Source: an uncultured Acidimicrobiia bacterium
GTDB lineage: Bacteria > Actinomycetota > Acidimicrobiia > Spongiisociales > UBA5794
DNA: 64,000 nucleotides
NCBI GenBank assembly: GCA_963714055.1
Contig: OY970227.1
Location: forward strand, 499,079 to 563,078
Reading direction: 5' to 3'
Position numbers and translations under genes: made by a program. Of the stretch, positions 8,872-41,915 are shown one piece after another (the stretch's first letter is position 1; each line of letters opens with the position of its first letter). The notes beneath the pieces are model-generated. The model saw only the letters and a list, made by a program, of their open reading frames with translations. It was not told where the DNA came from and did no database searches.

Positions 8872-9031
8872 GGCGCCGAGGATACGCCGGTGCCGGCCAT
8901 CGCGGATCGCTCGATTCGGCGCCGGTACCGGCGCACCCCGGTGATATCCCGAAAGGCACGCTCGCCAGCATCGAACGTCAAGGGGAACCGTGCCTCGATC
9001 GCAAGTGGCTGACCGGCCGAAGGAGGTGACG

Positions 9032-9295
9032 ATGGAAACGTATAGGGCCCTCGACCGCCACGACGGGCGTGCCTGGGTCGTCGAGTTCGACCGGCTGGAG
9101 CTGTCGACCTGGGCGCGTTCTCTGACGAAGGCCCAGCAGTACGCCCGCGAGGCGCTGGCGGTCACCCTCGACTACGACTCGGTCGAGGAACTCGAGAAGG
9201 CAGTGACGATCGAGGATCACGTCCGCGTCTCACAGATCGTCTCGGGCAAGAGGAAGCCTCGCACCCAGATCGCCGCAAAGAAGAAGGCCCAGTAG
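9032..9295 (+). CDS. small HicB-like (UPF0150) antitoxin-fold protein, orphan
   Basis: METYRALDRHDGRAWVVEFDRLELSTWARSL...AREALAVTLD preceded by a strong AAGGAGGTG RBS. No hicA partner is visible. Confidence 0.4.
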   Translation: METYRALDRHDGRAWVVEFDRLELSTWARSLTKAQQYAREALAVTLDYDSVEELEKAVTIEDHVRVSQIVSGKRKPRTQIAAKKKAQ

Positions 9296-9486
9296 CCGGC
9301 AGCGCCGAGAGACGATACGGACCCACCCCGCCGCCTTGCGGGGCAACCTCAGACGCCCCCGGGGCGGGTCCTGCGAGCACGTTACGCCTCTCAGGTCTCC
9401 AGATCCGGGACCACCGCCAGCGCGCAGCGAGTGAGCTGCTGGCGGCCTCTCGCATGGGCTTTGGTGAGAGCGTCGGGGGCGCTGCG

Positions 9487-9650
9487 AAGCCGAGCGCCAG
9501 CTCGGCGGGCATGTCACGGCCCAACGATGGGCTGGGGCCCCATCTGCGGGAGGAGCCGAGCGCCAGCTCGGCGGGCATGTCACGGCCCGCGATGGGGTTG
9601 GGGCCCCATCTGCGGGAGGAGCCGAGCCCTGCTCGGCGGGCATGTCACAG
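9487..9650. repeat. MIRU-like tandem repeat array (2.4 x ~63 bp) abutting the 3' end of tRNA-Val
   Basis: The unit gagcgccagctcggcgggcatgtcacggccc..ggggccccatctgcgggaggagcc is repeated. It contains the palindromes ccgagc-gcca-gctcgg and tggggcccca. The same family recurs at 30961-31116 in the opposite orientation. Confidence 0.75.
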
Positions 9651-9651
9651 T

Positions 9652-9723
9652 GGGCGTTGACGGGCTCGAACCGCCGACCTCTTCCTTGTAAGGGAAGCGC
9701 TCTTCCAGCTGAGCTAAACGCCC
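9652..9723 (-). tRNA. tRNA-Val (anticodon TAC)
   Basis: Reverse complement GGGCGTTTAGCTCAGCTGGAAGAGCGCTTCCCTTACAAGGAAGAGGTCGGCGGTTCGAGCCCGTCAACGCCC folds as a cloverleaf. It has a 7-bp acceptor stem, GCTC/GAGC D-stem, anticodon loop CTTACAA and T-loop TTCGAGC. CCA is not encoded. Confidence 0.85.
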
Positions 9724-9801
9724 CGAGGACGGACGGAACTCTAGGAGAGGCCGGGCGCACGCCTGCGTGGGTATCCCGTCCGGCGGGCCATACTGCCGGC
9801 G

Positions 9802-11265
9802 ATGGCCCCCCTGACCGCCCGCCTCCTCGTGTTCTTCACCGCGGCGGCGGTGCTGGTGATGGAGATCCTGGCGGGCCGTCTCCTCGCACCGTACGTAGGG
9901 GTCACGTTGGAGACATTCACCGGGATCATCGGGACCGTCCTCGCCGGGATCTCGCTGGGGGCGTGGGCCGGGGGACGGCTGGCCGACCGCCACCCGCCGG
10001 TGCGCCTGTTGGGCCCGGCGCTCGTCGTCGGCGGGCTGTTCGTGCTCCTCGCCCCCACCATCGTCGCCGCCGTGGGCCCGGCGCTCACCGGCGGCGGGCC
10101 GGTGGAGATCGTCGTCCTGGCCGCCCTGGGCTTCTTCGTCCCTGCAGTGGTGCTGAGCACGGTGACGCCGATCGTGGCCAAGATCACCCTCGACGACCTC
10201 GCCGAGACCGGATCCGTGGTCGGCGGGCTGTCCGCCACAGGTACCGCCGGCGCCATCTTCGGCACCTTCCTCACCGGGTTCGTGCTGCTCGCCGCGCTAC
10301 CCAGCCGGCCGATCGTGCTGGCGGTCGGCGTCGCCCTGGTGATCGCGGGGACGATCCTCGCCGCTCGCTCCACCAAGCTCGGGCCTCCCGGGGTGGCAGC
10401 CGTAGTGGCGGCGACGCTGGTCGGGGCGGCCCTGCTCGGGATCGTGTCGGGGCCCTGCCAGTTCGAGACCGGCTACTTCTGCGCCCGCGTCACCACCGAC
10501 GAGCTCCGGGAGAGCGGCCGGGTGCTGTGGTTGGACACCCTGCGCCACTCGTACGTCGACCTGCTCGACCCCAGCTACCTCGATTTCCGCTATGCCCGGC
10601 TGGTGGCGGACACCGTGCTCACCACCGCACCCGACGGTCCCCTCGACGCCCTCTACATCGGGGGAGGCGGATTCACCCTCCCCCGCTGGCTGTCCGCCGA
10701 GCGGCCCGGGAGCACCAACACCGTGCTCGAGCTCGATCCCAGCCTGGTCGACATCGCCGAGGACGAGCTCGGGCTGGTCACCGCCGAGATCGACGAGATC
10801 GCCATCGGCGATGCCCGCCTCGGCATCGACGACACCCCGGAAGGGGCGTTCGAGGTCGTGGTGGGAGATGCCTTCGGCGGGCTGTCGGTGCCATGGCATC
10901 TCACCACCCGCGAGTTCCTCGAGGACATCGACTCCCGGCTGGCACCGGGAGGCCTCTATGTGATGAACCTGATCGACTACCCACCGTTCCGCTTCGCCAG
11001 GGCGGAAGCGGCCACGCTCGCCGAGGTGTTTCCCGAGGTGCTGGTGCTGGCCCCGCCGGACTACCTGCACGGGAGGGCCGGGGGCAACGTCGTGCTCGCC
11101 GCCGGGGCGGCACCCTTCGACGTCGCCTCGATCGAAGCCGCCATCGCCGACCGGGCCGGCTCCGAGGTGGCCCTCACCGGGGCCGAAGCCGCCGAGTGGA
11201 TCGACGGCTCCCCGATCCTCACCGACGACTTCGCCCCGGTCGACCAGTGGATCAGCCGGGGCTGA
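9802..11265 (+). CDS. fused membrane-domain / spermidine synthase-like polyamine aminopropyltransferase
   Basis: N-terminal ~200 aa with multiple TM helices, then the Spermine_synth signature LYIGGGGFTLPRW...VVVGDAFGG...PWHLTTREF...PGGLYVMNLID. Confidence 0.7.
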   Translation: MAPLTARLLVFFTAAAVLVMEILAGRLLAPYVGVTLETFTGIIGTVLAGISLGAWAGGRLADRHPPVRLLGPALVVGGLFVLLAPTIVAAVGPALTGGGPVEIVVLAALGFFVPAVVLSTVTPIVAKITLDDLAETGSVVGGLSATGTAGAIFGTFLTGFVLLAALPSRPIVLAVGVALVIAGTILAARSTKLGPPGVAAVVAATLVGAALLGIVSGPCQFETGYFCARVTTDELRESGRVLWLDTLRHSYVDLLDPSYLDFRYARLVADTVLTTAPDGPLDALYIGGGGFTLPRWLSAERPGSTNTVLELDPSLVDIAEDELGLVTAEIDEIAIGDARLGIDDTPEGAFEVVVGDAFGGLSVPWHLTTREFLEDIDSRLAPGGLYVMNLIDYPPFRFARAEAATLAEVFPEVLVLAPPDYLHGRAGGNVVLAAGAAPFDVASIEAAIADRAGSEVALTGAEAAEWIDGSPILTDDFAPVDQWISRG

Positions 11266-31147: not shown

Positions 31148-32500
31148 ATGGGCCGGCTCCCTGCCATCCTCGCCCCCGTCGCCCTCGGCCTCTCTCTCAC
31201 CGGCTGCACCGTGGTCGGCGGCGAGACCGCCGCTCCTGCCGCGTCCACCGGGGTACCGACCACCGCCACCCCGACGAGCACCACCACCACCACCACCACC
31301 GACCCTCCGCCGTTGACGACGCTGCCGCCGATCACCACCACGTCGACCTCGACCACCACGACAACGACGATCCCTCTGCGCGACGTCACCGGCACGGTCA
31401 CCGCCGCCGACGGGACGCCCCTCCGGGCGGCGGTGGTGACCGCCACCGGTGACGCCACCGCGGTCACCAATGGGAAGGGCTCGTTCAGCCTCGAGCAGGT
31501 GCCGGTCGGGCCGCTGACGGTGGCCCGCCCCGGCTGGATGCCCCGCGAGGTGAGCTGGCGCGGCAGGCGCTCGCACCTCGACATCGAGCTCGAGCCCCGG
31601 GTGGTTCGCGGGGTGCGGGCGATCCCCGAGGTGGCCGGGGACCGCGAGCAGTTCGAGGCGCTGCTCGACGTGATCCGTGGGACAACGGTCAACGCCCTCG
31701 TCTTCGACACCAAGGACGAGACCGGACGGGTTCGCTACGCCACCGAGGTGCCACGGGCTACGGCACTCGGCGCCGTCGACGAGACGTACGACCCGGTTCG
31801 GGCGGTCCGCTGGGCGCACGACGCCGGGCTCTACGCCATCACCCGGGTGGTCACCTTCGAGGACCAGGTGTGGGCCGACGATCCCGGCGCCCACCTGGCC
31901 GGGTTCTGGGTCAACCCGCGGGACCGGGACAACTGGACGTACCCGATCCGCCTGGCGGTCGAGGCGTGCCGCCTCGGGTTCGACGAGGTCCAGTTCGACT
32001 ACGTCCGCTTCCCGGCGGGGGAGACGGCGACCGCCGCCGAGGAGGCACAGCCGCTCACCGCCGACCTGAGGGTCGAGGCGATCCGCGGCTTCCTCGACCA
32101 GGCCAGGAGCCGCCTGCACCCGATCGGCTGCGCCGTGTCGGCGGCGGTGTTCGGAATAGTGATGTCGTCCGCCGGCGACGAGGGCATCGGGCAGCGGCCC
32201 GAGGAGCTCTCCACCGCCGTCGACGCCCTCAGCCCGATGGTGTACCCCAGCCACTACTCCCCCGGATGGCTCGGGTTCGAGGACCCCAACGAGCATCCCG
32301 CCGAGGTGACCGCCGACGCGCTCGACGACGCCGCGGCCAGGGTCGCCCCGGGCACCCTGATCCGACCCTGGCTGCAGGGCTTCTACTGGAGCCCGCGGGA
32401 GATCGCCGCCGCCATCGCCGAGGCCGAGGCCCGCGGCTTCGGGTGGATCGTGTGGAACGCCGCCGGCAACTACCCGCGGTCGGCCCTGCCCAAGACCTGA
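31148..32500 (+). CDS. lipoprotein with Thr-rich linker and putative glycoside-hydrolase (DUF4015/GHL-like TIM barrel) domain
   Basis: Lipobox LSLTGC, a poly-Thr linker, and conserved FDEVQFDYVRFP and WNAAGNY motifs typical of DUF4015 hydrolases. Confidence 0.6.
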   Translation: MGRLPAILAPVALGLSLTGCTVVGGETAAPAASTGVPTTATPTSTTTTTTTDPPPLTTLPPITTTSTSTTTTTTIPLRDVTGTVTAADGTPLRAAVVTATGDATAVTNGKGSFSLEQVPVGPLTVARPGWMPREVSWRGRRSHLDIELEPRVVRGVRAIPEVAGDREQFEALLDVIRGTTVNALVFDTKDETGRVRYATEVPRATALGAVDETYDPVRAVRWAHDAGLYAITRVVTFEDQVWADDPGAHLAGFWVNPRDRDNWTYPIRLAVEACRLGFDEVQFDYVRFPAGETATAAEEAQPLTADLRVEAIRGFLDQARSRLHPIGCAVSAAVFGIVMSSAGDEGIGQRPEELSTAVDALSPMVYPSHYSPGWLGFEDPNEHPAEVTADALDDAAARVAPGTLIRPWLQGFYWSPREIAAAIAEAEARGFGWIVWNAAGNYPRSALPKT

Positions 32501-32506
32501 GACGAC

Positions 32507-33184
32507 GTGGACGCCACCATCCTGCTGGTCGAGGACGACCCGTCGATCCGGGAGACCACCACGATCGGCCTGGAGCAGGCGGGCTTCCGGGTCGACACCG
32601 CCGCCGACGGGCGGGCCGGGCTGACCGCCTTCCGAAGGCGGCGACCCGACCTGGTGGTTCTCGACATCATGCTTCCGTATGTCGACGGGCTCGAGGTGAT
32701 CCGGGCGATCCGGGCCGAGTCGTCGGTGCCGGTGGTGATGCTCACCGCACGGGCCGAGACGGTCGACGTGGTGGTCGGGTTGGAATCGGGTGCCGACGAC
32801 TACGTCACCAAGCCGTTCGAGATGCCGGTCCTGGTGGCCCGCATCCGGGCGGCGCTGCGCCGCGCCCATCAGTTGGAGCCTGCGGAGACCGTGACGCTGG
32901 GGGACGTCCACGTCGATGTCCTCGGCCACCGCGTGACCCGGGGGGGCGACGAAGTGGCGTTGACCCCGACGGAGTTCCGCCTGCTGGTCGAGCTGGCTCG
33001 GCGGCCCGGCCAGGTGTTCACCCGCGAGATGCTGCTCGAACGGGTGTGGGACATCGGGTACCTGGGCGACTCACGCCTGGTCGACGTCGCCGTGCAGCGG
33101 CTCCGTGCCAAGCTCGAGGTGGCGCCGGGGGCGCCGGCGGTGATCGAGACGGTGCGCGGCGTGGGCTACCGGGCCGCCCGCTGA
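32507..33184 (+). CDS. OmpR-family response regulator (MtrA-like)
   Basis: REC domain plus winged-helix (LTPTEFRLLVELARRPGQVFTREMLLERVW...VDVAVQRLRAKLE). Confidence 0.85.
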   Translation: MDATILLVEDDPSIRETTTIGLEQAGFRVDTAADGRAGLTAFRRRRPDLVVLDIMLPYVDGLEVIRAIRAESSVPVVMLTARAETVDVVVGLESGADDYVTKPFEMPVLVARIRAALRRAHQLEPAETVTLGDVHVDVLGHRVTRGGDEVALTPTEFRLLVELARRPGQVFTREMLLERVWDIGYLGDSRLVDVAVQRLRAKLEVAPGAPAVIETVRGVGYRAAR

Positions 33185-34651
33185 TGCTGGGCAGCTTCCG
33201 GTCCCGGCTGGTGGTCACGGTCATCGCCCTGGTCGCCGTCACCGCGGTGGCGGTGGGAGGTCTCGGGTACCTGCTGGTGGAGCGCTCGTTGCGCACCCAG
33301 CTGGTCGACGACTCGCTGGATCGCACCAGGTTCAACGTCACCGAGCTGGCCACCACCGACGTCCTGCCCGCCGGCGCCGACCGCGAGGACTTCGCCGCCA
33401 GCGGCCTGCTCGACCGCTTCGTGCTGCGGGGCACCGACGGGGTGCTCGTCGACTTCGGCGACGGGGACCCGTTCGCCTCGTCGCTCGCCATGGTCGACAC
33501 CGCGACCCGTCTCTCCCCCGAGTTGGTCGCCCTGGTCGCCGACGGCGAGGTCGGGTACCAGTTCGTGGAGCTCGGCGGCGGTCCGGCACTGCTGGTCGGT
33601 GCCCGTCGCCCCGAGGTCGGTCCCGACTTCTACTTCGAGTACTCCGCCGCCGCCGTCGACGGGGCTCTCGCCGACCTGCGGCGCACGCTGGTGTTGGCCG
33701 GCCTGGTGGTCGCCCTCCTCGGAGCGCTGGTGGCTGGTCTGATCGCCCGCACCGTGCTCCGCCCGGTCGGGGCCGCCTCGCGTGGGGCGCACCTCATGGC
33801 CGGGGGCGACCTCGATGTGCGCCTGGCCGAGGAGGGCGGTGACGAGATGGCCGCCCTGGCGGTGGCGTTCAACGAGATGGCCGCCTCGCTGCAGGAGAAG
33901 ATCGCCGAGCTGGAGGACTCGCGGGCCAGGGAACGCCGCTTCGTCGGCGACGTCTCCCACGAGCTGCGCACCCCGCTGACCGCCCTGGTCAACGAGGTGG
34001 CGCTGGTGGAGCCACACCTCGGGTCGCTCCCCCCGCCCGCCCGCCGCGCCGCCGAGATGCTCGGCGGGGACGTCGCCCGGTTGCGCCGGCTGGTCGACGA
34101 CCTGCTCGAGGTCTCCCGACTCGACAGCGACCACTTCCCCGCGGAGGTGTCGACGATCGACGTCACCGCCTTCCTCGGCGCGGTTGTGGCCGAACGGCTC
34201 CCCGAAGCGGTGCTCTCGGTTTCCAGCCGTCCTCAGGTCACCGCCGACCGGCTCGGGCTGGAACGGGTGGTGGCCAACCTGCTCGACAACGCCAGCGGCT
34301 CACGCCCCTGGGGCGGCGGTCACCGTCGGCGCCTCGATCGACGACGACGTCCTCGTCGTCGAGGTTGCCGACACCGGACCGGGAGTTCCCGACGAGGCGC
34401 TCCCCCACCTCTTCGACCGGTTCTTCATGGTGGACCCCTCCCGGCGGGGTGGCACCGGGCTGGGGCTGTCGATCGCCGCCCGCCACGCCGCCCGCATGGG
34501 CGGAGACCTCACCGCGCACCATGGCCCGGGGGGCCGCGGCATGGTGTTCCGACTCCGCGTCCCTGTTACCACATCGTTACCGGGTGGTGATGGCGGGGCG
34601 ATGCCGGCGGCGGAGAGTGAGGGTGCACGACCCTTCACCGGAGGCACCTGA
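33184..34651 (+). CDS. sensor histidine kinase (MtrB-like: 2 TM, HAMP, HisKA, HATPase_c) with apparent frameshift (~34292)
   Basis: HAMP (FNEMAASLQEKIAELE) and H-box (RRFVGDVSHELRTPLTAL) in one frame. The G1/G2 ATP-lid (VEVADTGPGVPDEALPHLFDRFF...GGTGLGLSI) sits in the +1 frame. Confidence 0.7.
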
Positions 34652-36135
34652 TGCGCCGCACAACGCTCTACCGCACACTCACTGCCACGATCGCCCTCGC
34701 CACGGCCCTCGTCGCCTGCGGCGGCAGCGACGTGGGCAGCGGCGGCACGGTGGGCTCACCAGGAGTCGACGCCACGACGACCTCGCCACCGTCCGTCGGC
34801 GACACGACGACCACGACGTCCGGTGGCGGCGAGTCGAGCACCACCACGACCGCGCTCGGGGTGCCGACGACCGAGCCGCCCGCCGAGGCGACCGAGGTGT
34901 TCGTCGACGTCTACTTCGTCGCCGACGGCACCTACGCCGCCACGGTCACCCGCGCGGTGGAGACTCCTTCGATCGCCGCCAACGCCATCCGCTCGCTCAT
35001 CGCCGGTCCTACTGCCGCCGAGGAGGGGTCGGGGCTGTCCAGCGCAGTCCCCACCGACACGCTGCTGCTCGGGCTGGACATCGACGACGGGCTCGCCACC
35101 ATCGACCTGTCCCGCGAGTTCGAGGCGGGCGGCGGCAGCTTCTCGATGACCAGCCGGCTGGCCCAGGTGGTCTACACCCTGACTCAGTTCGAGTCGATCG
35201 ACCGCGTCGACTTCCGGCTCGACGGCGAGCAGGTCTTGGTGTTCTCCAGCGAAGGCATCTTCCTCGACCATCCCCCCGTCGAGAACGGCGACTTCTTCTC
35301 GGTGCTGCCCATCGGACCGGCTGGTGGCGCCCCTGACGGGGCCGAGATCTGGACCCAGGACGAGCTCCCCCCGACCAGCGGTATCGCCAGCGCCCAGCTC
35401 GGCCGAGTGGTGTTGGTCGCCGACGACGACACGCTGAACGTTCGCACCGGCGCCGGGGTGGACAATCCTGTGATCGGCGAGATCATCCCCGGCGCCGTGG
35501 TCCACCGGCTGGGCGAGACCGAAGTGGTCGGGTCGTCGGTGTGGGCCGAGATCGCCACGCCTACCGGCACCGGGTGGGTCAACGCCACCTACCTGGGCGC
35601 CATCGTCGGGGCCGCCGCCTTCGCTGCCGACGACCGGGTGGCCGTCCTGCTCGACGACTTCGCCGCCGCCATCGCCGCCGACGGCGACATCCGCCCGATG
35701 GTGTCGGCGAGAGGTCTGTACGTGGCGCACCACGCCGACCCGATCCACTTCACCCGGTCCGAGCTGGACGGCATCCTGACCGACCCCACCACCTACAAGT
35801 GGCCGTCGGCGGCCCTCGACGAGTCCGACCCGGCCCAACTGGCGGAGATCCCGAGCCGCACCTTCGCCGAGGCGATCACCGACCGCTGGCTGGACGTCTA
35901 CGACGACCCCGACCGGGTGCTCATGTTCAACCAGCCGGTGTCCGGCGGCAACGGGCGGCTCCCCGAGTTCGCCATCCCCTACGAGCTCGGCGGGTTCAAC
36001 TATGCCGGCCTGTACGACCCGGGCGACGACCCCCAGTACGGCGGGCTCGACTGGAACACCTGGTACGTGTCGGTCGACTACGAAGACGGCAAGCCGAGGA
36101 TCGTCGCCCTCACCGTCGACGAATGGTCACCTTGA
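34651..36135 (+). CDS. LpqB-like lipoprotein (GerMN domain + bacterial SH3 domain + C-terminal domain)
   Basis: Lipobox LVACGG, then a GerMN motif run (VDVYFVADG...IDLSREF...RLAQVVYTLTQF) and an SH3b-like segment (VVLVADDDTLNVRTGAG...GTGWV). It sits in the mtrA-mtrB-lpqB synteny position. Confidence 0.65.
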   Translation: MRRTTLYRTLTATIALATALVACGGSDVGSGGTVGSPGVDATTTSPPSVGDTTTTTSGGGESSTTTTALGVPTTEPPAEATEVFVDVYFVADGTYAATVTRAVETPSIAANAIRSLIAGPTAAEEGSGLSSAVPTDTLLLGLDIDDGLATIDLSREFEAGGGSFSMTSRLAQVVYTLTQFESIDRVDFRLDGEQVLVFSSEGIFLDHPPVENGDFFSVLPIGPAGGAPDGAEIWTQDELPPTSGIASAQLGRVVLVADDDTLNVRTGAGVDNPVIGEIIPGAVVHRLGETEVVGSSVWAEIATPTGTGWVNATYLGAIVGAAAFAADDRVAVLLDDFAAAIAADGDIRPMVSARGLYVAHHADPIHFTRSELDGILTDPTTYKWPSAALDESDPAQLAEIPSRTFAEAITDRWLDVYDDPDRVLMFNQPVSGGNGRLPEFAIPYELGGFNYAGLYDPGDDPQYGGLDWNTWYVSVDYEDGKPRIVALTVDEWSP

Positions 36136-36257: not shown

Positions 36258-36470
36258 TCAATCCCAGCGGCGCTCCTCGGCGTCGGCCTGCTCGTTGCGA
36301 CGGCGGACGGTGTCGAGGGCGCGTTCCGCCGCCGCCAGGTCCGAGTAGGGCCCGAGCAGGTTCCGCAGCGGGCATCGCTCGTCACCGGACTCGACCCGGT
36401 CGTGCTCGACGCACCAGTAGAACCTCTGGTCGGCATCGGGGAGGTCGCCGCCGGAGTCGTTCACGGCCTC
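36258..36470 (-). CDS. small hypothetical Cys-containing protein
   Basis: Only the C-terminal ~70 aa look protein-like (RFYWCVEHDRVESGDERCPLRNLLGPYSDL...). The start is uncertain (GTG). Confidence 0.3.
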   Translation of the reverse strand, partial: EAVNDSGGDLPDADQRFYWCVEHDRVESGDERCPLRNLLGPYSDLAAAERALDTVRRRNEQADAEERRWD

Positions 36471-38882
36471 ACCGCGACACCCAGCTCGTCGAGCTTGGCC
36501 CTCACGTCGGGATCGGACAGATGGCCCATGTGCCCCTTGGGCTCGGGGCAGCCGGTACGGGCCGGCCGGGGATCGGGGAGGCAGACGTCGGTGGGAGGGA
36601 GGCCGATCCGCTCGTCCGGCCCGGTGAACAGGGGCCCGCCGATCGGGTCCGTCAGCCGGAACACGTTCCACCAGCGTTCCCCACCCCCGCCGTCATCCCA
36701 GGACGAGGCCACCCCGGCGGCGAGCCCGCCGCCGAACACCCCGGGCCAGAAGCGGCGGTAGTACCGGCCGACCGGAGACCCGTGGGTGAGAGCCGCCAAG
36801 CGGTGCGGGTCGACGCCGTTCAGCTGTAGGGCGCACGCCAGCGACAGCACCGCCCCCTGGCTGTGGCCGACGATCACCACTCCCTTTCCCTCTGATTCCA
36901 CCAGGGTGGTGATGTGACCGACCAGCTCCGGGATGGCACGCTCGGCGTAGGCCGGTGGCGCCAGGGGGTGGAAGCGGCGTGGCCAGAACGTGCCGACGTC
37001 CCACACCACGCGCGACGATGCGCCGGATGGCGGGGAAGCGGAACGCTGCCACCAGGATGGCGAAGGCGACGACGGGGAGCGCCACGCCCAGGACCGCGCC
37101 GGCGGTCGCCAGCCAGCTCCACGACCGGGGCCACGGGTTCTCGGCGAGGGCGAAGTGCACACGGTCGAGCGACCACAGGTCCATCGCCGGTCGGCCGGCA
37201 CGGATCACGCCGACGAGGAGGGCCGATGCGGCCACCCACACCACCACGGTGATGAGGACGTCGACGCTCCCGGCCAGGTCGGACACCGCCCGCCGTCTTC
37301 CCGCCTTGGTCGCCATCACGGTGCGGCACGGCTCCGCCTGACCCCAGTACTCCTTGGTGACCCGGGAGACCGGCCACGCTTCCCAGCGGCGGAACAGGAG
37401 GTACACCACCGCCCCAAGCGCAGCGGCGATGACGGCGCCGGTGAACACCGCGGTCACCCAGGCATACCCGGTCGGCAGCATGTCATCCCCCCGCCACCGG
37501 TCGACGACCCAGCTCAGCCCGCTGCCGGTGACCGAAAGCAACAGCAGCGACAGGGCACTGACCGTGGTCACCGGGAGCCAGCGGTAGCGGTCTCGCCGCC
37601 CGGTCTCGGCGATGGCGGTGACCAGGAAGGCGGCGGTGGCTGCCGCCACCCCGAGCCACCAGACGTCGTTGGCGGCGGCGGCGAGCAGCCCGGTGGCTGC
37701 CGCGGCGAGCGCGCAGAGAACCCCGGCGGTGGTGCGTCGGCTGGCCAGCACGACCACCCCGGCAGGCAGGAGGACGACGAGCACCCCGACGACGTAGGCC
37801 CAGGCCCCGGGCGGGGTGAGGGTGCCATCCGCCAGCCACACGACGAGGACCACGGCGACCAGCCCGGCGAGGACGGCGAGGAGACGGAAGCGACCGGCAG
37901 TCAGTCCGTTGGACCACACCACGACTCCCCCACCCCGCCGGCGCCAGGCGAGGCACTCGACCACGGCGAGGGTCGCCACCACCAACCCCGACACCAGCAG
38001 GGCCCAGAGCGGTGCCGTGCCCCACAGGTCGTCGAACGAGGTCGTCGGCTGCGGCAGGTCCGCCGACCAGGCGACGGCGATCGAAGCGGCGACGACGAGC
38101 GCACCGGCCACTGCCAGCGAGGTGGCGACACGCCCCCATCGGCGGGCCAAGCCGACCACCATCGCCGTCGAGCCCACCAGACCGGCGGCGACAGCCACCC
38201 CGAGAGGGAGCGCCTCGTCGGTGGCCCGCCACACCGAGTACGCCGGCAGGAAGGCGACGGCGGCGGCGGCGAGGCCGAGCTCACCTCGGCGCAGCGCCTT
38301 GAGCACGGGGGCGGTCTGCCAGAACTCGGGGTCGGCGAGCCCCAGGTCGTCGTCGGCGACGGCATCGACCTCATCAGCACCGTCGGGGGCACCGAACTCC
38401 TCGTACCGGCGGCTGCGGATGGTGGCGACGGCGACGACGGCCAGTGCCAATGTGGCGACGCCTGCGGCGAGGGCCAGCCGGCGGCTCAACGGCTCGTCGG
38501 CCAGCGCGGCGAAGGCCAGGGAGGCGATCCAGACCATGAGCAGCACGGTCTGGAGGTAGGCGACGACGCGGACCAGACCTCGCTGCGCCGCCGTCGCCCG
38601 CGGGCCGGCGGCGGGATCGACCATCCAGCCGGCCACGTTGACCACGGTGAACGGGAGGAGGAACACCCAGAGTGCCCTGGTGGCGTTACGCGCCGAGAAC
38701 CCGCCCCACGAGTAGACCTGCCGGGAGCGCGGCGGGTCGCCAACAGGCTCGGGGTCTTCCCAGAACCCGGCGATGTCGTCTGCGGCATCGCCGATCGCCA
38801 CCACGTCCTCACCGAGTTGGTCTCGGGCGCTGCCCCCGCCGACCCCGTGGATGCGGAGCTCGACGACTTCGGGCCGGGCCAC
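36461..38882 (-). CDS. large polytopic membrane protein (~14 TM) with C-terminal alpha/beta-hydrolase (esterase/lipase, GHSQG) domain; apparent frameshift (~37020)
   Basis: A GTG start overlaps the upstream dienelactone-hydrolase stop as TAGTG. A long Ala/Val/Leu-rich TM region follows. The C-terminus (VVWDVGTFWPRRFHPLAPPAYAER...VVIVGHSQGAVLSLACA) is in the adjacent frame. Confidence 0.55.
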
Positions 38883-39680
38883 TAGGTGGTCCCCAGGTGC
38901 TCGAGCAGGAACGCCCGCACCACCGTCGCGGGCCCCCGGGGCTCGGTCGGCGTGATCGGTCAACACGGCGTGCGAGTCGGGAGGGCCGGGGATGTCCTTC
39001 GCCGGGGGCTGGGGCGAATACCGGGTGAAGCGGCCACCGCCGGCGGCGTACACGTCTTCGATGCGGTCGAGGCGGGCGCCCGTGCACATGGTGTCATCGG
39101 AGAACCGGAGCCCGAGCACCGGGGTGCCGGTGGCCACCGCCTGCTCCACCCGGCTCTGGCGGTCGCCCAGCTCGGCGGCGCTCACCTGCTTTGCCCTGGG
39201 GCGCAGCGGGACGCTGGGCTGGCTGGCAACGGCGGCGCCGACGCTTGGGTCGAGCACCAACGAGAAGACCAAGCCGCCGGTGAGGCACATTCCGATGACG
39301 CCGACGGTGCCCGGCGTCCCCTCGGCGACGTGGCGGCACAGGGCCCGCAGCCAACCGCTTATCGGGCTCGACCGGCCGGCGCTGAGCATGGCGAACTCTC
39401 GGCGTATGCAGATGAATCGGGCCTTGCGCAGCGGGTCCTTCGTCCCGGTGACCGTGCCGTCGAGGACCTGCCCGGGATACCCGTGGAGGACCGGGATGTG
39501 GACCTGGAAGTCGCCGGCGAGGGCGTCGGCGAAGTCGAGGCAGGCCCGACTGACGCCACCTACCTCGTGGAGCAGGACGACGCGGGGCCCGGGGCCGTCG
39601 ATCAGCAGCACATCGCGGGTCAGCCCGTCATAGGTGAACGGATATTCGCGAGGTGCTGGCAATGTTTCCGCTCCGGTTCC
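38883..39680 (-). CDS. dienelactone hydrolase family protein with apparent C-terminal frameshift (~38945)
   Basis: EYPFTYDGLTRDVLLIDGPGPRVVLLHEVGGVSRACLDFADALAGDFQVHIPVL is the DLH core. The genuine C-terminal helix (ATVVRAFLLEHLGTT, then stop) is in the +1 frame. The start within the track ORF is uncertain. Confidence 0.5.
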
Positions 39681-39789
39681 GGCTGACGACGGCGGGCCGG
39701 GCGATGCTACCGAGCGGCCTTGGCCACTCCCCGTCTTTCGAGCGGAGTCACCTCGCTGCCGGCGACACCGGGGGCTGCCGGCGACCTGC

Positions 39790-40710
39790 CTAGGAGGCCG
39801 GGGCGTAGACGAGCACCCCATCGGCGGGCTTGGGGCCGATGTCATACCGCTCGACAACCGCTTCGGACATGTCGGCGAAGTCGGAGGCCCTCTTGAAGTC
39901 ACGCAGCGACGTGCCCGTCGAGGCGTTGTCGATGTTGTGCGCCCCGACTCCGTCGATCACGTCGTCGAGGTTCACGGTGCGGAAGTCGATGCTGTACCGG
40001 GTGTATCCAGAGGTGTTGGGCACGGTGGAGTGGAGTTGCGCACCGGAGAACAGCACGATGCCGCCGGGCGGGACCACGAAGCGCACCTGCGGGTTTGGGT
40101 CGAAGTCCTCACGTGGGATGGGCTGCTCGCGGGTGTCGCTGGTGATCTGCGATGCAGCCTGGGCTCGGCCGACGGCGTTCCACTCGTAGTAGTTGAAGTC
40201 GGCGGAGCCGTTCATCACCGGCTGGTCCCACCCGCGGGGATGGAAGGCCATCGAGCACTCGGTCTCGAACTCGTAGACGGGCAGCCACCAGTTGAGCTGG
40301 GCGTGGGGCGCCGACCACCACACGTCTCGGTGCAGGGGGTGGGCGTAGCCCACCCCTGCGGTCAGGTAGGAGTCGCTGGTGACCATGCGCAGCCTCGGCA
40401 CGTCCTGGTAGGTGCGGTCGAGGTCGCAGCCGAGCTCGGTGAGCACGGCCCGGATGAGCCGCTTGGTCTTGGCGTTGTGGATGAACGCCGGCTTCAGCGG
40501 GGCGACGACGTCGACGTACTCCTCCACCGTCATGTCGAACTGGGCATATCGGGGATCCTTCCCCGGGAACGCCGCCTCGATCATGTGCCGGGCATGGGCG
40601 ATCAGCGCTCGGGTGCTCCGGCGGGGCGTGAACACGAAGATCTGCCCGTCGTAGACGCGGTGCCGCCTGGCGGCGTCGTCCATTTCGGAGTCGATGTAGA
40701 CCGTGTGCAT
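39790..40710 (-). CDS. phytanoyl-CoA dioxygenase (PhyH) family Fe(II)/2OG oxygenase
   Basis: Start MHTVYIDSEMDD with a GGGGGAAG RBS. HRD (HxD) motif, a distal His and RYSIDFR (2OG Arg). Confidence 0.7.
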   Translation of the reverse strand: MHTVYIDSEMDDAARRHRVYDGQIFVFTPRRSTRALIAHARHMIEAAFPGKDPRYAQFDMTVEEYVDVVAPLKPAFIHNAKTKRLIRAVLTELGCDLDRTYQDVPRLRMVTSDSYLTAGVGYAHPLHRDVWWSAPHAQLNWWLPVYEFETECSMAFHPRGWDQPVMNGSADFNYYEWNAVGRAQAASQITSDTREQPIPREDFDPNPQVRFVVPPGGIVLFSGAQLHSTVPNTSGYTRYSIDFRTVNLDDVIDGVGAHNIDNASTGTSLRDFKRASDFADMSEAVVERYDIGPKPADGVLVYAPAS

Positions 40711-40829
40711 CGCAGACTTCCCCCGATGAACCTGGCTCTGTTCCCCTGAGCTACATGGCAATCGTAACGGAGCGACCGGATACGCTGGATGGGTCGATCG
40801 ACCCTTTGGGAAGCGGGACGGCGACCCTG

Positions 40830-41743
40830 TCACGGCGTGATCACCAGCTTGCCGACGACACGGCGGCCGGCAAGCCGGGCGAGCACCTCCGGCTCCGTCG
40901 TCGAGCCCGAACCGACCGGTGATCGTCGGGGCGACCCTCCCCTGCTCCCACCACTCGGTGAGCGTGGCGAAGTGGGCCCGATTGGCCTCGGGCTCCAGCT
41001 GGGCGAAGCGACCCCAGAACACGCCCACGAGAGAGGCGCCCTTCAGCAGCGGCAGGTTCGCCGGGATGGCCGGGATGGCCCCGGCGGCGAAGCCGACCAC
41101 CAGCAGCCTTCCGCCCCAGGACAGGCTGCGGAAGGCGATCTCGGTGGCATCGCCACCCACCGGATCGAACACCACATCGACCCCGTCCGGGGCGGCGGCC
41201 CGGAGCGCGTCGCGCAGGTCGTCGCGGTCATGGCGCACCACGGCGTCCGCCCCGGCAGCGGTGGCCGCCCGCTGCTTGTCGTCGGACCCCACGACGGCGA
41301 CCACACGCGCGCCGAGGGCTCTTCCCACCTGCACCGCCGCCAGCCCGACGCCGCCGGCGCCGCCCAGCACCACCAGGGTCTCGCCGGGGGTCAAGCCGCC
41401 CCGGTCGACGAGGGCGTGGATGGCGGTGCCGTAGACGACAGGGAGCACCGCCCCGACCTCGAACGGCATCCCCGGCGGCATCGGGAAGACGTTGGCGGCA
41501 TCCGCCACCACCCGTTCCGCCCACCCGCCGTGGGGGACGAACGCCATCACCCGCTGCCCCGGCCGAGAACCCGTCGCCCGAGGCGACGGTCCCCGCCACC
41601 TCGAGGCCGGGAGCGAACGGGGGCTCGGGCCGGAACTGGTACTGCCCGCGGACCATGAGCACGTCCGGGAAGTTGGCCCCGGAGGCGGCGACGACGATCT
41701 CCACCTGACCGGGCGCCGCCACCGGCTCGGGCAGCTCGCCCAC
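40830..41743 (-). CDS. NADPH:quinone oxidoreductase (MDR/Qor) with two apparent frameshifts (~41575, ~40900)
   Basis: N-terminus MGELPEPVAAPGQVEIVVAASGANFPDVLMVRGQYQ. Middle GGAGGVGLAAVQVGRALGARVV (Rossmann fold). C-terminus EVLARLAGRRVVGKLVITP, then stop. Each segment lies in a different frame. Confidence 0.7.
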
Positions 41744-41854
41744 GCCGCACCAACGGCGGGTCGCCGACCTGGTCGCACACCACCGCTCTCATCGGCGGGC
41801 AGCGTAACCTCCGGCCGGCACGTCCCGCTTTCATCGAACACTCGACGCGGGACT

Positions 41855-41895
41855 TGACACATCCGGTACATGTGGTACATTCGATCTGTATCGAA
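41855..41895 (+). promoter_or_regulatory. candidate promoter/operator of the ArsR-type regulator: TTGACA-like hexamer plus TTCGAT-CTGT-ATCGAA palindrome
   Basis: An unusually AT-rich segment immediately upstream of the 41916 start. It has a TTGACAC -35-like box at 41855, a TACATT -10-like box, and a 6-4-6 inverted repeat overlapping the -10/TSS. Confidence 0.3.
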
Positions 41896-41915
41896 CGATC
41901 GAACCGGAGCAACCG

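Follow-up and report, generated by a model that had tools for sequence, protein, structure and literature searches.

The window, a 64,000-nucleotide stretch of a contig from an uncultured Acidimicrobiia bacterium, appears to carry a small operon of an Acidimicrobiia-like actinobacterium, in which a dienelactone hydrolase (DLH) gene, a membrane hydrolase gene and an ORF for a 68-aa protein follow each other with successive stop/start overlaps. The membrane protein is read here as a serine hydrolase of the α/β superfamily with a split architecture, which would be catalytically competent: its N- and C-terminal ends would together form the catalytic domain and the transmembrane (TM) helices would lie between them. 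The function favoured, with slightly more confidence than doubt, is that both halves of this split hydrolase are cytoplasmic and act on an acyl ester of a membrane lipid, the DLH performing a second step. The membrane protein belongs to a family that is not rare, with about 2,000 clusters at 50% identity (E<1e-30) in at least 594 species.

Operon layout and reading frames

The DLH and membrane protein genes are joined by a 1-nt overlap of stop and start codon, found at the junction (Table 1) much as a previous sequence-only reading had described it, with a membrane protein of ~800 aa. A GGGGA motif stands 7 nt 5' of the GTG start of the membrane protein, and GGAGCGG precedes the TTG start of the DLH gene. 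Independent contigs (L001, L003, L007 and L088/L089), encoding membrane proteins that share 41-97% identity with that of the window, show the stop/start overlap too; in the gene calls it is identical in L001, L003 and L007, and 4 nt long in L088. Because the overlap recurs in this way, the TAGTG junction is neither a chance juxtaposition nor an assembly chimera, an artefact that the earlier reading had allowed for. The 68-aa ORF is kept downstream of the membrane hydrolase gene in L001, L002 and L003, gene calling in related contigs also yields a gene of 68 aa, and a Pfam search with its product gave no match.

Table 1. Features of the operon, in window coordinates (aa, residue numbers of the membrane protein)
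Feature	Position	Strand	Remarks
DLH-family hydrolase gene	38882..39662	minus	259 aa once extra base 38925 removed; TTG start 39662, TAG stop 38884-38882
LHEVGGV motif of DLH	39552-39572	minus	
GMCLTGG, Cys nucleophile elbow of DLH	39273..39293	minus	aligns with GYCLGG of Pseudomonas dienelactone hydrolase 1din
FSDD motif of DLH	39093-39104	minus	
DSHAVL motif of DLH	38961-38978	minus	
Extra base C in DLH gene	38925	minus	GCGA[C]GGTGG; missing from L007, L001, L002; removal restores ORF
TAGTG junction	38880..38884	minus	DLH stop / membrane-protein GTG start, 1-nt overlap
Membrane hydrolase gene	36461..38882	minus	806 aa once extra base 37010 removed; GTG start 38882-38880
N-terminal catalytic segment, aa 1-66	38685..38882	minus	β-strand VVELRI, HG motif and β-hairpin
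HGVGG motif, putative oxyanion hole	38835-38849	minus	within aa 1-66
YSWGG, end of β-hairpin	38700-38714	minus	within aa 1-66
Membrane domain, aa 67-615	37038..38684	minus	H0 and 14 predicted TM helices; from AF2 helices, hydropathy, loop charges
H0 LLPFTVVNVAGW, aa 67-86	38625..38660	minus	conserved short hydrophobic helix
C-terminal catalytic segment, aa 616-806	36461..37037	minus	
Extra base C in membrane-protein gene	37010	minus	GTCGCG[C]GTGGTG, just before WDVGTFWPR; missing from L007, L001
WDVGTFWPR	36977-37003	minus	C-terminal catalytic segment
GHSQG, nucleophile elbow, Ser674	36854-36868	minus	C-terminal catalytic segment
THGSP	36773-36787	minus	C-terminal catalytic segment
TDPIGG, Asp745	36635-36652	minus	C-terminal catalytic segment
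LPDP, Asp770	36569-36580	minus	C-terminal catalytic segment
KGHMGH, His784	36521-36538	minus	C-terminal catalytic segment
68-aa ORF	36258..36464	minus	GTG overlaps membrane-protein stop (GTGA); YWCxxH...C motif

The ORF list of the window shows a single 1069-aa ORF (36693..39902) and a 246-aa ORF (36461..37201) that holds VVWDVGTFWPRRFHPL...VVIVGHSQGAVLSLA. A single apparent frameshift had been proposed for each gene, and alignment to the metagenome contig L007 (96% identical), and also to L001 and L002, locates one extra base in each, with intact relatives. Against L002 the second of them is positioned at 37012 instead of 37010, and both insertions are supported. Once the first base is removed, the DLH is 259 aa long, ends in ...GAREVVRAFLLEHLGTT* and agrees in translation with L007; the C-terminal peptide reported earlier, '...ATVVRAFLLEHLGTT', has two residues from the wrong frame, and the true sequence is ...ARE/DVVRAFLLEHLGTT. 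Removal of the second gives an 806-aa membrane protein reading ...AIRRIVAVVWDVGTFWP... and restores ...IRRIVAVVWDVG... as found in the homologue P0001, one of three intact homologues (P0001, 97%; P0002, 90%; P0003, 84%) that span 100% of the protein.

The alignments indicate that the two frameshifts are most likely assembly errors rather than the mark of pseudogenes. This is favoured because neighbouring, unrelated genes of the window (zinc-ADH, histidine kinase) carry similar single-base indels, and the related long contig L002 has its own, different set of 1-nt indels, the kind of pattern that consensus errors typically leave in a long-read assembly. A decaying operon, in which both frameshifts are genuine, is quite improbable: both are present in the window sequence as given and neither sits in a long homopolymer, but the coding sequence, 96% identical in nucleotides to intact L007, has no stop codons or other lesions beyond the extra bases. 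Programmed frameshifting was rejected, since the same proteins are encoded without a change of frame in close relatives, and the additional bases occur in the window alone.

Catalytic segments and membrane domain

The hydrolase domain had been placed in the C-terminal ~200 aa. The GHSQG serine-hydrolase module does lie there, but residues 1-66, with their strand, HG motif and hairpin, appear to belong to it as well. In the proposed arrangement these residues would supply a core β-strand, the oxyanion-hole motif and the hairpin, and the last ~190 residues would supply the nucleophile elbow (Ser674), the acid (Asp745, possibly Asp770) and His784. In a full-length alignment of 22 sequences (A1), conservation reaches at least 90% at residues E8, H12, G13, V14, G16, Y57 and W59; in a spliced alignment (A2) each of them is either invariant or conserved to at least 90%. 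Among the residues of the C-terminal segment, S674 is conserved to at least 90% and D745, D770 and H784 are invariant in A1; in A2, H12, G13, S117 (=S674), D188 (=D745) and H227 (=H784) are invariant, and D213 (=D770) reaches at least 90%. The HG motif occurs in 141 of 152 members, and the counts of the other motifs over the 152 representatives are consistent with the triad. Its predicted order is nucleophile-acid-histidine, with Asp745, possibly Asp770, as the acid. A central β-sheet, together with a nucleophile located in a sharp GxSxG elbow after a β-strand, places the protein in the α/β-hydrolase superfamily.

The AF2 model of P0001, which is 97% identical (pLDDT 75.7, pTM 0.80), begins with N-terminal strands (6-11, 39-47 and 52-58; block pLDDT 73-90) that are followed by helices and then by four C-terminal strands only; confidence is low at residues ~320-435 and 563-585. 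The alignment covers 146-155 residues for minimal hydrolases of 172-186 aa and 209 residues for Tle3. The latter figure exceeds the 191 residues beyond the last TM helix, so that a complete fold would require the N-terminal piece. The model suggests that the membrane domain is an insertion inside the hydrolase fold, with the N- and C-terminal halves inferred to pack together. Searches of the PDB and Pfam with the spliced profile gave sub-threshold matches centred on the elbow, leaving the N-terminal HG strand unaligned. A natural soluble, uninterrupted relative was not found in plasmids by tblastn with the spliced domain, which returned TM-containing members only.

AF2 helices and hydropathy agree on 14 predicted TM helices, the number given by the sequence-only reading, and these are preceded by H0. 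The family-averaged hydrophobic stretch of H0 is only ~10 residues long, the loop that follows is K/R-rich, and P77 and N82 are at least 90% conserved (A1); H0 is probably interfacial or re-entrant. A membrane-spanning helix at residues 67-86 would put the N-terminal segment on the outer side of the membrane, and the split-domain model would then not hold. The number of TM helices is 14 in the clade of the window and 10 in most members of the family, whose averaged profile displays a short H0 and 10 TM helices with strictly alternating charge; H0 plus 14 and H0 plus 10 have the same parity.

Over 141 members, the mean K+R per loop is 3.2-5.9 on the side of the C-terminal domain vs 1.5-2.7 on the opposite side. 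Some members also carry N-terminal fusions of ~300 aa without a signal peptide (GDPD in P0017; helical domains in P0032, P0033 and P0035), and their N-terminus must therefore be inside. From these positive-inside statistics and fusions the catalytic domain is predicted to be cytoplasmic, not on the periplasmic or exterior side, for which the earlier reading had wanted the esterase checked. Both catalytic halves would then be assembled as one domain on top of the membrane bundle. The bundle itself shows no internal repeat (hhalign of TM1-5 vs TM6-10, probability 2.4%), and it matched neither MFS, MOP/MATE, Acyl_transf_3, MBOAT nor any other family in Pfam, nor any solved fold; the known transporter or glycosyltransferase family that might have accounted for it was thus not found by either route.

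The family and its likeness to known hydrolases

No Pfam, NCBIfam or PADLOC family was matched by the membrane protein, and the family was not found described in the literature searched on actinobacterial membrane lipases and related hydrolase families, in agreement with the initial impression that it was not a recognised one. Every named host belongs to the Actinomycetota and includes Streptomyces, Micromonospora, Nocardiopsis and other genera, in which the DLH partner is almost always absent. The family search gave ~4,800 hits, and the members found are labelled "hypothetical protein", save for one UniRef entry named "Lipase (Class 3)".

Against Pfam, the full-length protein gives only sub-threshold matches to Esterase, Abhydrolase_1 and FSH1. 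The spliced domains of 21 members match weakly to Lipase_3 (8/21; best E-value 1.7e-4), Cutinase (6/21; 3.9e-3), PGAP1 (two members), Abhydrolase_8 and Tle3 (0.02); a minority of members match, and none of those tested reaches the gathering threshold for Lipase_3 (PF01764), Cutinase (PF01083) or Tle3 (PF24322). Profile matches in the PDB land on the elbows of cutinase and PAD4, and Foldseek finds a local match to the R. miehei lipase (probability 0.98). Class 3 lipases (PF01764; Rhizomucor miehei lipase, PAD4/EDS1) and cutinases (PF01083) share with the family a GHSxG/GYSQG elbow followed by a T(F/Y)GSP strand motif. These enzymes are, however, soluble or secreted single domains, whereas the fold considered here is interrupted by 10-14 TM helices. 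The PLA1 effector Tle3 has the xHSQG elbow in the form SHSQG (PMC9860674), which the family shares as GHSQG. Tle3 (PF24322; PDB 8boz) is a toxin secreted in soluble form, which carries large soluble decorations, has an immunity partner and lacks a TM insertion; by contrast, the family here is encoded by a chromosomal, mostly stand-alone actinobacterial gene, and all its similarity to Tle3 lies below family thresholds.

Several known proteins combine an α/β-hydrolase with membrane helices and have presumed lipid substrates, namely Abhydrolase_9 with Abhydrolase_9_N, DUF687, PGAP1/Bst1 and PlaF (PMC11878206). Their TM helices are N- or C-terminal appendages, whereas the bundle of this family would interrupt the fold, after the β-hairpin and before the helix that leads into the nucleophile strand. 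Among the insertions described in the consulted part of a 2024 survey of α/β-hydrolase insertions, a TM bundle does not appear. Neither the full-length nor the spliced sequence matches PF10081 or PF15420. OatA/Acyl_transf_3-SGNH proteins are alike in joining a polytopic domain to an esterase, but both domains differ in fold (SGNH vs α/β). The OatA esterase is extracytoplasmic; that of the family, by contrast, is predicted to be cytoplasmic, and no OatA-type domain was matched in Pfam.

The genomic context across the family is variable and carries no pathway signal. Clustering of ORFs around 80 loci, which included many spurious high-GC ORFs, yielded no family-wide partner gene and only a Streptomyces-specific synteny (PALP, DeoR, MOSC and Rv1733c-like), common to ~45-48 of the 80 loci. 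As judged by tblastn against all loci, the DLH, the 68-aa protein, patatin, GDPD and the helical extension are each confined to one lineage or locus. In other actinobacteria the family is widespread, and the DLH pairing, whose synteny the sequence-only reading had wished to see surveyed, is found in one Acidimicrobiia-like lineage only. It may be, although this is put forward tentatively, that the family represents an undescribed architecture, in which a lipase-type fold is split by a bundle of 10-14 helices of no known fold that gates lateral access of lipid to a cytoplasm-facing site, and that it forms a large, unannotated housekeeping family for lipid remodelling in the Actinomycetota, Streptomyces included.

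Substrate, DLH partner and competing functions

The DLH passes the family threshold of PF01738 (25.4 bits, cut-off 21, residues 24-203) and has no signal peptide, which bears out the soluble hydrolase that had been recognised upstream. Its 747 homologues are mostly labelled dienelactone hydrolase, hundreds of them being ~260 aa long, and PF01738 is present in most of the 120 listed. The motifs LHE..G, GxCxGG, D and H occur in the expected order, the latter two taking the forms (F/A)(S/D/G)D and (S/R)H(A/S)(V/T)L in L007, L001 and L003. They point to a Cys-Asp-His triad with a GxCxGG elbow, with Asp and His assigned by position. ClcD (1din, PF01738) aligns with it across the nucleophile, yet at 13 bits only, and no clc/tfd-type chloroaromatic catabolic genes were present among the ORFs and neighbouring genes examined around the DLH. 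Comparison of the spliced membrane-hydrolase profile with the DLH profile gave no meaningful alignment (hhalign probability 0.2%). Since the DLH is missing from most family members (tblastn against all loci), its coupling being limited to the one lineage, it is not integral to the mechanism of the membrane hydrolase. It could carry out, in the cytoplasm, a second hydrolytic step on the released product or a related ester or thioester, and translational coupling would ensure that it is made in a fixed ratio with the membrane hydrolase.

The membrane protein may be a membrane-integrated phospholipase A or a remodelling enzyme of the lysophospholipase type, whose TM bundle would present a membrane-embedded lipid laterally to the active site, where the acyl ester would be cleaved or transferred. 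Deacylation of membrane lipids is weakly suggested by the xHSQG motif as in Tle3, by the motifs resembling class 3 lipases and cutinases, and by the GDPD fusion near patatin. The link to phospholipids in particular is likewise a weak one, consisting of one fusion and its neighbourhood (L090, where translational coupling links the GDPD::family fusion and a patatin+DUF3376 gene) and of the sub-threshold motif likenesses. With the catalytic domain in the cytoplasm, an exported polymer would be a less likely target than membrane lipids reached from the inner face. Among the candidate roles offered by the earlier reading, lipid remodelling would thus be the favoured one, and polymer export is disfavoured by the predicted location.

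An exporter function, with the TM domain acting as a transporter and the esterase working outside on an exported polymer or small molecule in the manner of OatA/Acyl_transf_3-SGNH proteins, is hardly probable. It would suit the large polytopic domain of 10-14 TM helices, the Cys pair that Streptomyces-type members conserve in the first of their loops predicted to be external, and the polysaccharide deacetylase and glycosyltransferase genes found within a few kb in some genomes. The positive-inside statistics and the N-terminal fusions nevertheless place the catalytic domain in the cytoplasm, no signal peptide is present, and the bundle lacks both a detectable internal repeat and any Pfam match. 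An acyltransferase or transacylase is an unlikely reading. An α/β-hydrolase fold with a Ser-Asp-His triad is equally able to perform acyl transfer or hydrolysis. Here the acyl chain of a Ser-acyl intermediate would be passed from one membrane lipid to another, or to an acceptor in the TM bundle, either an envelope lipid or a glycolipid, and the DLH would supply or recycle the donor. However, no acceptor-pathway genes are conserved nearby, the nearest motif likenesses are to lipases, cutinases and Tle3, and catabolism, rather than synthesis, is the better match for the GDPD fusion and the patatin neighbour.

The likeness to the T6SS effector Tle3 also raises the question of a regulated self-destructive or antagonistic phospholipase, which as a toxin or anti-phage effector would disrupt the membrane once triggered. 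One member carries a fused GmrSD_C nuclease domain, the ~300-aa helical N-terminal extensions of some members might be sensor domains, and a Tle1-like gene neighbours one locus and patatin another. Such a role is very improbable in view of the conserved Streptomyces synteny, which is not that of variable islands, the spread of a mostly stand-alone gene over so many species, and the lack of a conserved immunity-like partner. PADLOC, moreover, returned no matches for P0001, P0013, P0020 or the DLH, and one weak match in an extra C-terminal region of P0174.

If the split architecture and the lipid substrate both hold, the family would be a large, uncurated group of integral-membrane serine hydrolases, present among others in the industrially important genera Streptomyces and Micromonospora. 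It would also represent a new way to build an α/β hydrolase, with a whole membrane domain inside the fold. The pairing with the DLH, as a lineage-restricted add-on, is of more modest interest. The family merits a Pfam or NCBIfam model, which would give a name to thousands of "hypothetical proteins". To our knowledge, enzymes for phospholipid turnover and remodelling at the cytoplasmic face are poorly known in actinobacteria, and this family would be a candidate for that role.

Gene layout and the two interruptions

The dienelactone-hydrolase-family (DLH) gene and the membrane-protein gene lie on the minus strand in a region of ~72% GC, where the ORF listing contains a 1069-aa ORF (36693..39902), the one in which the sequence-only reading had seen both genes merged, and a 246-aa ORF (36461..37201). 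In three-frame translation, the DLH-like protein occupies one frame and its C-terminus (...VVRAFLLEHLGTT*) lies one frame on, the long Ala/Val/Leu-rich membrane protein begins VARPEVVELRIHGVGG, and its last ~190 residues (VVWDVGTFWPRR...GHSQG...) are shifted again to the next frame. Window bases 38925 and 37010 (placed at 37012 against L002) are missing from all three metagenome contigs compared, L007, L002 and L001 (96, 94 and 84% DNA identity, respectively). Removal of both restores reading frames of 259 and 806 codons, and the corrected products agree with the intact proteins of relatives at both junctions; the single frameshift suspected in each gene is thus one extra base.

Neighboring genes are also affected. 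The zinc-ADH/quinone-oxidoreductase gene has single bases added or lost relative to close relatives, and extra bases at 41903, 41744, 41566, and 40890 fuse it and the next gene into a 696-aa ORF (39790-41880, minus); the histidine kinase (31870-34651, plus) is broken across ORFs 31870..34590 and 34184..34651. The 350-kb contig L002, a relative, has 1-nt indels too, in a set that differs from the window's. Because of these neighboring and independent indels, the two frameshifts are read as probable consensus errors, and the assembly behind the window seems to be error-prone (long-read). True pseudogenisation, which would take both interruptions at face value, is improbable. Programmed frameshifting was excluded, since relatives encode both proteins in frame.

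Features of the operon and of the convergent block (window coordinates)
Feature	Position	Strand	Remark
DLH start	TTG 39662	minus	GGAGCGG precedes
DLH stop	TAG 38884-38882	minus	overlaps membrane-protein GTG
Membrane-protein start	GTG 38882-38880	minus	junction reads TAGTG
Membrane-protein stop	TGA 36463-36461	minus	overlaps GTG of 68-aa ORF
68-aa ORF (VNDSGGDLPDADQRFYWCVEHDRVESGDERCPL...EERRWD)	36464->36258	minus	GTG overlaps membrane-protein stop (GTGA)
GerMN+SH3 lipoprotein gene	34651-36135	plus	then two-component system (HK/RR), DUF4015, CorA

The DLH protein passes the Pfam DLH model (25.4 bits, cut-off 21) and lacks a signal peptide. Its GMCLTGG aligns to GYCLGG of the Pseudomonas enzyme 1din across the Cys nucleophile, and 747 homologues were detected, mostly of ~260 aa, from many phyla and named dienelactone hydrolase. 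Within this broad family, few of whose physiological substrates are known, it is an ordinary member. The 68-aa ORF, kept downstream in the closest relatives (L001, L002, and L003), matched no Pfam family and may encode a small Cys/His metal-binding protein. Upstream of DLH, at a distance of 128 nt and in the same orientation, is a 306-aa gene (39790-40707, minus) with a weak, sub-threshold match to PhyH (phytanoyl-CoA dioxygenase). The two genes are neighbors in the contigs of the homologues P0001 and P0002, not in L003, and in L007 they are separated by an additional ~850 nt that include a 162-aa ORF; the operon may thus have a fourth gene.

An unnamed family with a proposed split hydrolase fold

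The membrane protein matched no family in Pfam, NCBIfam or PADLOC. A word-indexed search returned intact full-length homologues at 97, 90, 84, and 41-65% identity, and relatives at 25-45% in Streptomyces, Micromonospora, and Prauserella, all named “hypothetical protein” with the exception of one UniRef “Lipase (Class 3).” Run exhaustively against 1.84 billion cluster representatives, a profile search retrieved 4,781 clusters at E<=1e-3, of which 1,965 reached E<=1e-30, with end-to-end alignment for the best 150, and scanning one genome per species turned up at least 594 loci. Among the best 80 of these, every named host belongs to the Actinomycetota (Streptomyces, Micromonospora, Nocardiopsis, Planomonospora, Dactylosporangium, Glycomyces, Frankiaceae, Acidimicrobiia). 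The finding is rated as the unnamed family rather than this locus, and the sequences are already public.

Conservation is clustered at the two ends of the protein. The N-terminal end contains E8, H12, G13, V14, and G16 (ELRIHGVGG) and Y57 and W59 (YSWGG), followed by W72, P77, and N82 (LLLPF..N.A.W), and the C-terminal end WDVGTFWPR..HP.APP.YAER, GHSQG (S674), T(Y/H)GSP, TDPIG (D745), DP (D770-P771), and GH (H784). The AlphaFold2 model of P0001 (97% identical; family alignment, pLDDT 75.7, pTM 0.80) has N-terminal strands at 6-11, 39-47, and 52-58, ~15 long helices across residues 67-615 and only four C-terminal strands (667-673, 695-700, 737-742, 765-768). The alignment to Tle3, a family of T6SS phospholipase A1 effectors, spans 209 residues, whereas 191 lie beyond the final TM helix; for minimal hydrolases of 172-186 residues the aligned length is 146-155, and the C-terminal segment offers only the β5-β8 half. 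The strand and HG motif at the N-terminus occur in 141 of 152 members. From these lengths and this near-universal motif, the best reading is that residues 1-66 would supply a hairpin and β3, which would bear the oxyanion-hole HG, and that the membrane domain would be inserted ahead of the helix leading to the nucleophile strand. The hydrolase domain of ~200 aa first assigned to the C-terminus would therefore also include the N-terminal strand, HG and hairpin.

Catalytic residues are conserved in ~96% of members, which argues for an enzyme, not a decayed domain. The nucleophile is lost in a few (GHGQG in 4/152; GYHVG in Prauserella P0023), which suggests occasional non-catalytic derivatives. 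The module is taken to work like minimal lipase, cutinase and Tle3-type serine hydrolases, and scored below every family threshold tested. In known membrane-associated α/β hydrolases, among them Abhydrolase_9 with Abhydrolase_9_N, DUF687, PGAP1, and PlaF, by contrast, the helices are terminal appendages and not a TM bundle within the fold; such an insertion is not described in the consulted part of a 2024 survey of α/β-hydrolase superfamily insertions (PMC11878206).

Topology of the membrane domain

Counted backwards from the C-terminal domain in 141 members, loops on its side average 3.2-5.9 Lys+Arg vs. 1.5-2.7 on the opposite side, alternating strictly. The averaged profile of 87 typical members shows H0 (LLLLPFMVAN), a ~10-residue hydrophobic segment, then ten TM segments, with K/R-rich loops after H0, TM2, TM4, TM6, TM8, and TM10. 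The window's clade has H0 and 14 helices, as first counted, with the same charge pattern, so parity is conserved, and the catalytic C-terminal segment is predicted to be cytoplasmic. The N-terminus, which has no signal peptide, must be cytoplasmic too, since some members carry signal-less extensions of ~300 aa there (GDPD, glycerophosphodiester phosphodiesterase, in P0017; helical in P0032, P0033, and P0035). For both ends to lie inside, H0 has to be interfacial or re-entrant, not membrane-spanning. The helical extensions are repeat-like, match no Pfam family and may be regulatory or sensor domains.

The membrane domain has no Pfam match at E<=1, no internal repeat, and a best Foldseek E of 0.04 (TM-scores <=0.26; residues ~320-435 modeled at low confidence); neither search returned a transporter or glycosyltransferase already described as having an esterase at its C-terminus. 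Streptomyces-type members conserve a Cys pair (QCxxxxxC; P0013 ~141-147) in the TM1-TM2 loop, the first predicted extracytoplasmic one, which may form a disulfide and is absent from the window's clade. In P0174, a GmrSD_C (DUF1524-type nuclease) domain follows an extra TM segment at the C-terminus (941-1058), a candidate fusion or gene-call artefact.

Genomic context and candidate function

The overlapping DLH/membrane-protein pair recurs in L001, L003/L008, L007, and L088/L089 (membrane-protein identity 41-97%), which upholds the proposed translational coupling. In L014, a further Acidimicrobiia MAG, a DLH homologue lies ~2 kb off on the opposite strand, and in Streptomyces, Micromonospora, and other genera the family gene stands alone in variable surroundings, without DLH; synteny among Streptomyces loci is an ordinary orthologous neighborhood. 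The convergent GerMN/SH3 lipoprotein, HK/RR, DUF4015, and CorA block is kept in the lineage beside the operon (L001, L002, and L003). It is not part of the operon, because it lies on the other strand, and may form a functional neighborhood with it (envelope sensing?). Among the family's otherwise variable settings, only contig L090 (259-6629) is informative: the stop of a 1,113-aa patatin+DUF3376 gene overlaps the start of P0017 (1,010 aa), in which the GDPD is fused to the family membrane hydrolase, so that the two are translationally coupled; this pair, seen once, is a possible phospholipid catabolic module. In L091, a Tle1-like (PF09994/DUF2235) α/β-hydrolase gene (8961-10004) lies convergent and directly downstream of the distant member P0028.

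Four lines, none strong, suggest that the protein hydrolyses acyl esters of a membrane lipid. Its xHSQG elbow is found also in cutinases (GYSQG) and Tle3 (SHSQG), an experimentally shown phospholipase A1 (PMC9860674); spliced N- and C-terminal domains weakly match Lipase_3, Abhydrolase_8, Cutinase, PGAP1, and Tle3, and a PDB profile search matched PAD4 and cutinases; patatin and GDPD, associated in L090, would make up a full route from phospholipid to glycerol-3-phosphate; and the active site is, by the predicted topology, joined to the membrane bundle on the cytoplasmic face. The main rival is an acyltransferase role. The topology disfavors modification of an exterior polymer, and the gene's conserved place in the chromosome, together with the lack of any PADLOC match, speaks against a toxin or defence role. 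The cytoplasmic, co-translated DLH partner plausibly, though speculatively, handles a soluble product. Pairing with DLH is confined to this lineage; it is the size and architecture of the family that would be notable to specialists.
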